DNA of 20,719 nt, from the IMG/VR virus record IMGVR_UViG_3300005838_000086; one strand, given 5' to 3'. Numbering within the stretch: the stretch's first letter is position 1; each line of letters begins with the position of its first letter. Of the stretch, positions 6,790-7,064 are shown piece by piece. Source of the stretch: a virus. A program made the position numbers and the translations under genes. Below the pieces are notes generated by a model. That model saw only the letters and a program-made list of their open reading frames with translations, was not told where the DNA came from and ran no database searches.

Positions 6790-7064
6790 GGGGTTGTTTC
6801 TGTTACTAGGCACAACCCCAAAAAAACCCTACAGTCTAATTATGCCGCTAGAGCAACCCTCGCAGGGGAATAGTCTGAATGATTAGCAGCGTTGAAATTT
6901 GCAGCTAGTTTGTGATGTTGGTCATCACCCATCCGTTCTCGCTGTTACTCTCACTAGCAATCGAATACCAAAACACCCCCAATTCGGTTATAGTTGGTGG
7001 AGGTGGCCAGAGTCGAACTGGCGTCTTACTTAGTTACCCTACAGGTCATCAAACATCTCTAACT
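6790..7064 (-). ncRNA. ssrA: Circularly permuted (two-piece) tmRNA gene
   Basis: Minus-strand order: acceptor piece with T-arm GCCAG-TTCGACT-CTGGC and CACCTCC-A-CCA (7022-6995); 14-nt intervening segment (6994-6981); coding piece starting GGGGGTG (6980-6974), which pairs 7/7 with CACCTCC including G3:U70; resume context TAGCT-GCA-AAT; tag ORF 6902-6840 ending ALAA-TAA. Outer boundaries are approximate. Confidence 0.92.
6840..6902 (-). other. tmRNA proteolysis-tag reading frame ANFNAANHSDYSPARVALAA*
   Basis: 20 codons from GCA (6902-6900) to TAA (6842-6840), preceded by the UARNY-GCN-AA resume context and a GTGATG/CATCAC helix (6928-6912); hydrophobic ALAA C-terminus. Confidence 0.85.

Follow-up and report, generated by a model that had tools for sequence, protein, structure and literature searches.

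A probably functional, circularly permuted two-piece tmRNA gene in the replication gene cluster of a T4-like marine myophage

The stretch of DNA analyzed here (the window) comprises 20,719 nucleotides of the viral record IMGVR_UViG_3300005838_000086 and, judging from its sequence, derives from a T4-like myophage. It encodes gp32 (4019-4900, minus strand; Pfam PF08804), gp59 (4939-5553, minus strand; Pfam PF08993/PF08994) and the late-transcription coactivator gp33 (5550-5780, minus strand; Pfam PF16805), along with a DnaG-type primase, a class II ribonucleotide reductase and ThyX, and also a T4 baseplate protein and a cell wall hydrolase. No isolate phage has a gp32 more than about 54% identical to that of the window, and the best gp32 matches are marine, namely, Prochlorococcus and Synechococcus myophages, Melnitz (OM43) and HTVC008M (SAR11), all of which are Kyanoviridae. 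An ORF of 1011 aa on the opposite strand (977-4012, plus strand), beside the T4 baseplate gene, has no match in Pfam or PHROG and is probably a structural or tail fiber protein of unknown family. The tmRNA gene that concerns us lies on the minus strand, downstream of a PD-(D/E)XK exonuclease gene (7103-7831, minus strand; Pfam PF12705, phrog_298), our upstream synteny anchor, and upstream of gp33, from which it is separated by two ORFs (6760-6194 and 6221-5820). The first of these (6194-6760, minus strand), directly 3' of the tmRNA, matches DUF3293 with 31.8 bits, above the cutoff, and falls just below the cutoff for the S-adenosylmethionine lyase family (27.4 versus 28 bits); its product may be an anti-restriction SAM lyase. 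ARAGORN found no tRNA genes in the window, and an integrase was not found among the ORFs scanned in it. Neither was a gene for SmpB, among the 28 ORFs scanned in the 20.7-kb window; hence, the function of the RNA would depend on a host SmpB that accepts a diverged RNA.

An earlier, sequence-only reading of this DNA had proposed a phage-encoded, circularly permuted, apparently functional tmRNA, and this core of it is supported by our analysis. ARAGORN, which it had suggested as a check, calls a permuted tmRNA at 6749-7091 (minus strand) with the tag ANFNAANHSDYSPARVALAA. The Rfam model RF04321 (tmRNA_permuted), whose gathering score is 47, gives 68.2 bits at 6840-7055 (minus strand), with E = 1.8e-11 when the whole window is searched; the alignment is full-length, covering model positions 1-213. 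This match is far above chance; at 68 bits against 83-104 bits, it is the lowest in its clade. The same reading had named other Rfam models as a check: the alpha, beta and cyano models, scored on L116, and the one-piece model RF00023 stay below threshold. L116 is a contig of another metagenome that is 99.75% identical to the window; it reaches 28 bits with alpha_tmRNA (RF01849; cutoff, 50) in a full-length alignment, and 29.4 bits with the cyano model (RF01851; gathering score, 70) and 28.2 bits with the beta model (RF01850; gathering score, 84), in both cases over the tRNA-like core only. As this nearly identical copy comes from a second metagenome, the tmRNA locus is not an assembly artifact. 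The warning that tRNA scanners might miss or miscall the gene did not hold for the standard tools used here, as both ARAGORN and Rfam detect it at default settings. We also considered a one-piece, tag-less arrangement, with GGGGTTG at 7092-7086 (minus strand) as the alternative 5' strand. It scores 35 bits with RF00023 against a cutoff of 47, and GGGGTTG forms only six of the seven pairs with the 3' acceptor strand, one pair being mismatched; this heptamer lies upstream of both candidate promoters, is absent from relatives and is probably a chance occurrence.

The arrangement of the RNA is the one that had been read from the letters: on the minus strand, the 3' tRNA-like half comes ahead of the 5' half with a gap of 14 nt, and every element is found where it had been placed. 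The acceptor piece (6995-7055), delimited by the Rfam alignment, the pair list and covariation, contains a T-arm (7022-7006) with the stem GCCAG/CUGGC (7022-7018/7010-7006) and the loop UUCGACU, the 3' acceptor strand CACCTCC (7005-6999), the discriminator A6998 (A73), an alanine identity element, and an encoded CCA (6997-6995); the acceptor strand and the CCA are read directly from the sequence. It is followed by an intervening segment of 14 nt (6994-6981), predicted to be excised, which is "empty" compared with the ORF-bearing segments of 95-205 nt found in relatives. The coding piece (6790-6980), for which the MFE fold was used in addition to the above three lines of evidence, begins with the 5' acceptor strand GGGGGTG (6980-6974). 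This strand forms all seven pairs with 7005-6999, upholding the 7-bp acceptor stem with a G3:U70 wobble (G6978:U7001) proposed before. A D-loop analog, UUUUGGUAUUCGA (6973-6961), leads to the helices that connect the two pieces: P2a, in which 7033-7031 and 7029-7026 form seven canonical pairs with 6960-6954 around a bulged A7030, again as foreseen; P2b (7044-7041 with 6945-6942); and P2c (7055-7051 with 6938-6934). Thereafter come a pre-tag hairpin, GUGAUG/CAUCAC (6928-6923/6917-6912), the resume context UAGCU (6907-6903), a tag ORF running from GCA to GCA (6902-6843) and its stop codon UAA (6842-6840). The coding piece ends in a 3'-terminal hairpin predicted from the MFE fold, GGGGUUGU/ACAACCCC (6819-6812 with 6797-6790), whose stem covaries by eye in our alignment A1 and whose loop, CCUAGUAACAGAAAC, contains AACAGAA and agrees with the alpha_tmRNA consensus ...CAACAGAAacC. 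We noted, moreover, that the octamer UGAUGACC is present twice on the minus strand, at 7044-7051, within the 5' portion of the acceptor piece, and at 6920-6927 in the region of the pre-tag hairpin, and that GAUGACC at the latter site is conserved in many viral permuted tmRNAs; the octamer may be a pseudoknot partner.

The structure was modeled by mapping the Rfam architecture onto the window and then refining it against relatives, and all 34 modeled pairs are canonical in the window. In an alignment of permuted tmRNAs, 17 diverse sequences taken from unrelated viral contigs, RNAalifold recovered the acceptor stem, the T-arm and P2a without structural hints, and 10 of the 19 pairs that it predicted show compensatory changes on both sides. 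When the 34 pairs were counted over these 17 sequences, 79.8% of the cells were paired, versus 66.6% in shuffled alignments, and the covariation score was 0.402, versus 0.170 ± 0.016 upon shuffling, a value that none of 500 shuffles reached; once the pairing partners were slid by one to three columns, the score was 0.125 or less. Covariation in related phage contigs, which had been named as a check, therefore bears out the acceptor stem, the T-arm and the connecting helices. The T-arm and the acceptor stem are paired in 100% of the cells, the invariance of the acceptor stem being partly a product of the search pattern that fetched some of the sequences. The G3:U70 wobble is invariant in all 17 sequences and stands, with A6998, as the alanine identity signature of the RNA. 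P2 is likewise recovered, with many double changes in P2a and P2c and a weaker P2b, which is paired in 58.8% of the cells and holds only among closer relatives, as does the pre-tag hairpin (42.6-67.6% of the cells). Of the pseudoknots that a tmRNA has upstream and downstream of its tag, none could be defined with tools that do not model them; before the tag, this hairpin (6928-6912) is the one element that emerged. The single-sequence fold of the precursor is not significantly stable (z = -0.97), and the fold supported by covariation is less favorable than the nested MFE by about 13 kcal/mol. Such weak thermodynamics limit the evidence, though they are nothing out of the ordinary in an AU-rich, protein-assisted RNA whose pseudoknots are unmodeled.

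The complete tag frame claimed in the sequence-only reading was confirmed: it consists of 20 codons (6902-6843) followed by a stop, and ARAGORN gives the identical tag. It begins with alanine and has a hydrophobic, alanine-rich end, ALAA, before the stop codon; an ALAA end is the standard proteolysis signal. The tags of relatives follow the pattern ANN[AS]DY...A[LI]AA, and their frames always start with GCA, carry UAA or UAG at -5 to -3, and end in A[LI]AA plus a stop. The resume codon of the window, GCA (6902-6900), is preceded by UAGCU, where relatives have UAAUC or UAAUU; the corresponding context in Escherichia coli is UAGUC. Two RNAs, L077 and L103, which are the closest relatives outside the syntenic set, share the tag ANNSDYSPAQVALAA, with which the window tag agrees over its last 15 residues. 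At its start, the window tag has an in-frame insertion of 15 nt (five codons) that is unique to it. We considered the second GCU as the resume codon, which would yield a 15-aa tag like that of L077, and rejected it, as it is the first GCA that carries the conserved UAG at -5 to -3. Across the family, every indel in the tag has a length divisible by three and no tag has lost its stop codon, which argues that the frame is translated.

Upstream of the RNA lies the element TATAAATA (7071-7078, minus strand), which ends 15 nt before P2c, the first helix. Its core, ATAAATA, does not vary among the 33 distinct upstream regions that the syntenic relatives provide, the base before it being any of the four. 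A -35 element is not conserved, with four of six positions reached in 5 of the 33 upstream regions, and it is there that the nuclease gene ends. We take ATAAATA without a -35 element to be the signature of a T4-type late promoter dependent on gp55 and gp33, and gp33 is encoded in the window. By its conserved motif, TATAAATA at 7078-7071 is a putative T4-type late promoter of the tmRNA, and the invariance of its core suggests that the tmRNA would be made at the time of late-protein production. The element is not enriched in the window, where it was found twice against 1.59 expected. Its sole other occurrence (9231-9238, minus strand) lies 77 nt upstream of the cell wall hydrolase gene (8510-9154), a position that fits a late promoter of a lysis gene. 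A sigma70-like sequence, TTGATA-17-TATTAT (7078-7106, minus strand; 10 of 12 consensus matches), overlaps TATAAATA and could be a weak alternative promoter; it is not conserved in relatives. No terminator was found after the 3' hairpin, and read-through into the downstream ORF is therefore likely. A search of 6000-7900 for a glutamine riboswitch likewise gave nothing, even at E ≤ 10.

To place the gene among its relatives, we fetched 49 viral loci with the upstream PD-(D/E)XK nuclease as the anchor, 4 of which end right after the nuclease gene; in all 45 contigs that extend past it, a permuted tmRNA lies immediately 3' of the nuclease homolog. The BLAST-closest RNAs, from the syntenic phage contigs L141 and L140, are about 80% identical in the acceptor piece and 78% identical over 95 nt of the coding piece, and BLAST of the Melnitz and HTVC008M tmRNAs against that of the window gave no match. 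When a 451-nt region was compared with 50,697 phage records by BLASTN (word size 11), no match was obtained, indicating that the tmRNA is too diverged for searches by sequence only; the Melnitz and HTVC008M tmRNAs were reached through Rfam alone. On the bacterial side, a scan with a type-specific pattern over one genome for each of 185,579 species gave 10 matches. One is real, that in G001, a 0.9-Mb alphaproteobacterial metagenome-assembled genome, and it resembles the window in the core at most; the other nine are chance matches without an ARAGORN call. Sampling of the order of G001 added 12 bacterial tmRNAs, and of the resulting 13, one had a 31-nt core match to the window by BLAST and the rest had none. 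Hence, neither the pattern scan of 185,579 species nor BLAST with the 13 bacterial tmRNAs yielded a near-identical host ssrA.

These results bear on the two origins that had been offered, capture from a host lineage with a permuted ssrA and independent permutation in the phage. The latter is excluded, as position and architecture are orthologous to those in Melnitz and the 45 syntenic contigs. As to capture, the lack of a near-identical host ssrA in the searches above argues against a fresh acquisition and for a lineage that has long resided in phages. Of 20 syntenic relatives, 8 reach the threshold of the alpha_tmRNA model (RF01849), as do L077 (68 bits), Melnitz and HTVC008M, and the alpha affinity of the window tmRNA would accordingly be founded on orthology and not on its own score. 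The gene is best read as a member of an old, fast-evolving, phage-resident lineage of apparently alpha-like ancestry. The host clue that the gene was thought to provide shrinks to the broad group shared with pelagimyophages and Melnitz; since phages have long passed it on vertically, at one fixed locus, it is of limited direct use for naming a host.

Between the CCA and the GGGG strand, the window and L116 have 14 nt, and L150 and five contigs nearly identical to it (L157-L159, L161 and L166) have 26 nt. In the other syntenic relatives this segment is far longer, at 95-113 or 182-205 nt, and an ORF fills it almost exactly. These ORFs start 7-16 nt after the CCA behind a Shine-Dalgarno-like AAGGA, GGAG or AAGAGA and stop 1-16 nt before GGGG (e.g., L128:3813-3902, L132:3805-3891, L144:3796-3879, L152:3780-3956 and L160:3829-3993, among contigs L125-L168). 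Their products fall into at least four hydrophobic families of 28-30 aa and one basic family of 52-59 aa that ends in EH[FY]xxxWDxDLWD, a C-terminal motif kept across very different N termini. Pairwise differences at codon positions 1, 2 and 3 number 28, 10 and 81 in one family and 55, 18 and 88 in another, and this concentration at third positions supports the view that the ORFs are coding. A wider scan gave 90 distinct cases of a long intervening segment flanked by strands with true acceptor pairing, 29 of which are ORF filled, and about 19 of these 29 encode strongly hydrophobic peptides of further families. The basic DWDxDLWD peptide is represented by 89 unnamed clusters in a large protein collection. 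Its gene is found both inside tmRNA genes (L323-L326) and free-standing, without tmRNA flanks, at L322:701-823 (IMGVR_UViG_3300031801_000010) and, as a truncated variant, at L317:701-826, which suggests that it behaves as a small mobile gene. None of the slot peptides has a match in Pfam or PHROGs. The unusual contents of tmRNA intervening sequences mentioned in the 2025 database paper are a tRNA-Ala gene and a repeat element only (PMC11915505), and our search of the accessible literature found no report of protein-coding ORFs in such segments. We tentatively propose, as a possibility that we hold at less than even odds, that the tmRNA gene of this group also serves as a late-transcribed processing unit whose excised segment is an expression slot for small mobile genes, the window being an empty-slot allele. 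The tRNA-processing enzymes would then release the segment between the CCA end and the RNase P site as a mini-mRNA, and the slot may encode membrane peptides of 22-32 aa from several unrelated families and the basic DWDxDLWD peptide of 52-59 aa.

On the whole, we consider it very probable that the window carries a functional permuted two-piece ssrA, resident in a T4-like marine myophage of the Melnitz/pelagimyophage-like group, that acts in canonical trans-translation. Its working can be conceived as follows. A single precursor would be transcribed, most likely from the TATAAATA late promoter, and cleaved by host RNase P on the 5' side of G6980, while 3' trimming would expose the encoded CCA at 6995, releasing the 14-nt intervening segment. 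The acceptor and coding pieces would be held together by the 7-bp acceptor stem and P2a-c. We infer that host AlaRS charges the RNA via G3:U70 and A73 and that the charged RNA enters stalled ribosomes with host SmpB, host EF-Tu being used as well. Translation would resume at the GCA at 6902, and the tag would be appended to the stalled product, with its ALAA end as a degradation signal. The likely benefit to the phage is the recycling of ribosomes late in infection, a stage at which the supply of RNA from the host breaks down and truncated mRNAs build up.

Three other explanations were weighed against this canonical role. The gene could encode a tmRNA mimic with a noncanonical role, which competes with or replaces the host tmRNA and alters the fate of the products of stalled ribosomes, for example, by tagging host proteins selectively for amino acid recycling or by interfering with a host defense based on ribosome stalling. 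The internal part of the tag, which differs among phage lineages and from cellular tags, and the unique five-codon insertion in the window would agree with such a role; selective tagging was raised as an option by the authors of the Melnitz study (PMC9004378), and the tag-less phage tmRNA of DS6A is reported to inhibit host tmRNA (PMC11915505). Against this, everything that ordinary trans-translation requires is conserved, from the full canonical architecture to the alanine identity elements and the A[LI]AA end of the tag, and no sequence feature indicates a different mechanism; we regard a mimic as unlikely.

Even less probable, in our estimate, is a decaying, nonfunctional relic of a host ssrA acquired by the phage. 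The scores below the lineage-specific Rfam cutoffs, the lowest RF04321 score of the clade (68 versus 83-104 bits) and the weak thermodynamic signal are what such a relic might show, but the full set of 34 canonical pairs, the compensatory nature of the substitutions in relatives, the intact tag frame with its in-frame insertion, and the retention of the gene at the same locus in all 45 relatives, with a 99.75%-identical copy in a second metagenome, run counter to decay. Temperate elements often integrate into tmRNA genes, and fragments of ssrA are seen in prophages (PMC9004378, PMC11915505), so that an attP-like sequence or an integration remnant left by such elements has to be weighed as well. 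Here, however, both halves, the tag frame and the 3' hairpin are all present, which makes the gene complete rather than a 3' fragment; it sits within a replication gene cluster; and the phage is T4-like, with no integrase among the ORFs scanned, all of which makes this origin most improbable. Relative to a functional, phage-resident ssrA, each of these rivals is disfavored by a fold that is intact and covaries, by the conservation of the tag frame and its degradation end, and by a gene that is complete and occupies a fixed position in a replication cluster of lytic type.

The value of the window tmRNA is mainly one of correct annotation, and the gene places this uncultured phage in the Melnitz/pelagimyophage-like group. 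The late-promoter motif offers a testable idea of why lytic ocean phages keep a ribosome rescue RNA. Most worth following are the slot ORFs of the relatives and the late-promoter wiring; the former, if confirmed, would represent a novel form of nesting, in which a coding gene is placed within a noncoding RNA gene.

Among known systems, the mycobacteriophage tmRNAs (e.g., of cluster C1) and that of DS6A are phage-borne like the present one but are one-piece, nonpermuted forms from hosts and phage families unrelated to those of the window; the DS6A form, moreover, is without the tag frame that the window has. The two-piece tmRNA of Caulobacter crescentus (Keiler, Shapiro and Williams 2000) is reportedly the experimentally proven archetype of the permuted kind. 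As in the window, the alphaproteobacterial form (RF01849) has the acceptor piece before the coding piece, an encoded CCA, pieces joined by the acceptor stem and P2, and an AACAGAA-type 3' hairpin loop; it differs in being a cellular gene with its own SmpB partner. HTVC008M, a Pelagibacter phage, and the metagenome-derived pelagimyophage genomes (MAVGs) carry a permuted alpha-type tmRNA in T4-like SAR11 myophages. The HTVC008M tag begins with ANFN, as does that of the window, but is 10 aa long; its intervening segment is a structured one of 49 nt, ATAAATA is absent upstream, and its RNA passes the alpha_tmRNA model with 83.8 bits.

The closest parallel is Melnitz, a phage of Methylophilales OM43 (MZ577098.1, 45984-46436), which is, like the window, a T4-like marine myophage with a permuted ssrA. 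In Melnitz, two small ORFs lie between the nuclease gene and ssrA. The two phages share the gene order of PD-(D/E)XK nuclease, ssrA, gp33, gp59 and gp32, a TATAAATA-like element upstream of ssrA, and a tag that starts with AN and ends with ALAA, which is 14 aa long in Melnitz and 20 aa long in the window. They differ in that Melnitz has a glutamine riboswitch just after ssrA, which the window lacks (E ≤ 10), and a full sigma70 promoter, TTGACA-N17-TATAAA, interpreted as early by its authors (PMC9004378), whereas the window and its syntenic relatives share ATAAATA without a conserved -35 element. The Melnitz intervening segment is also longer, at about 147 nt against 14 nt, and its RNA passes alpha_tmRNA with 106.7 bits, against 28 bits for the window copy (as L116). 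Inside the annotated Melnitz ssrA, we observed an unannotated ATG behind GGAG in the intervening segment (L123:1585-1750), the candidate frame of about 54 codons crossing the GGGG strand into the coding piece. More broadly, two-piece tmRNAs in Melnitz and pelagimyophages were described by Buchholz et al. in 2022 (PMC9004378), who found permuted tmRNAs in 17 of 47 related contigs. By their ARAGORN calls, 53 of the 133 unique phage tmRNAs of a 2021 database are two-piece, 50 of these 53 being marine or aquatic (PMC9004378), so that two-piece forms are neither rare nor new among phage tmRNAs. The 2025 tmRNA database, the source of the RF04321 model, holds 79 bacteriophage sequences (PMC11915505). 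With a simple pattern, we found at least 119 IMG/VR contigs that have the permuted arrangement and this acceptor stem. The window gene is of a kind already known, to which it is a diverged addition.
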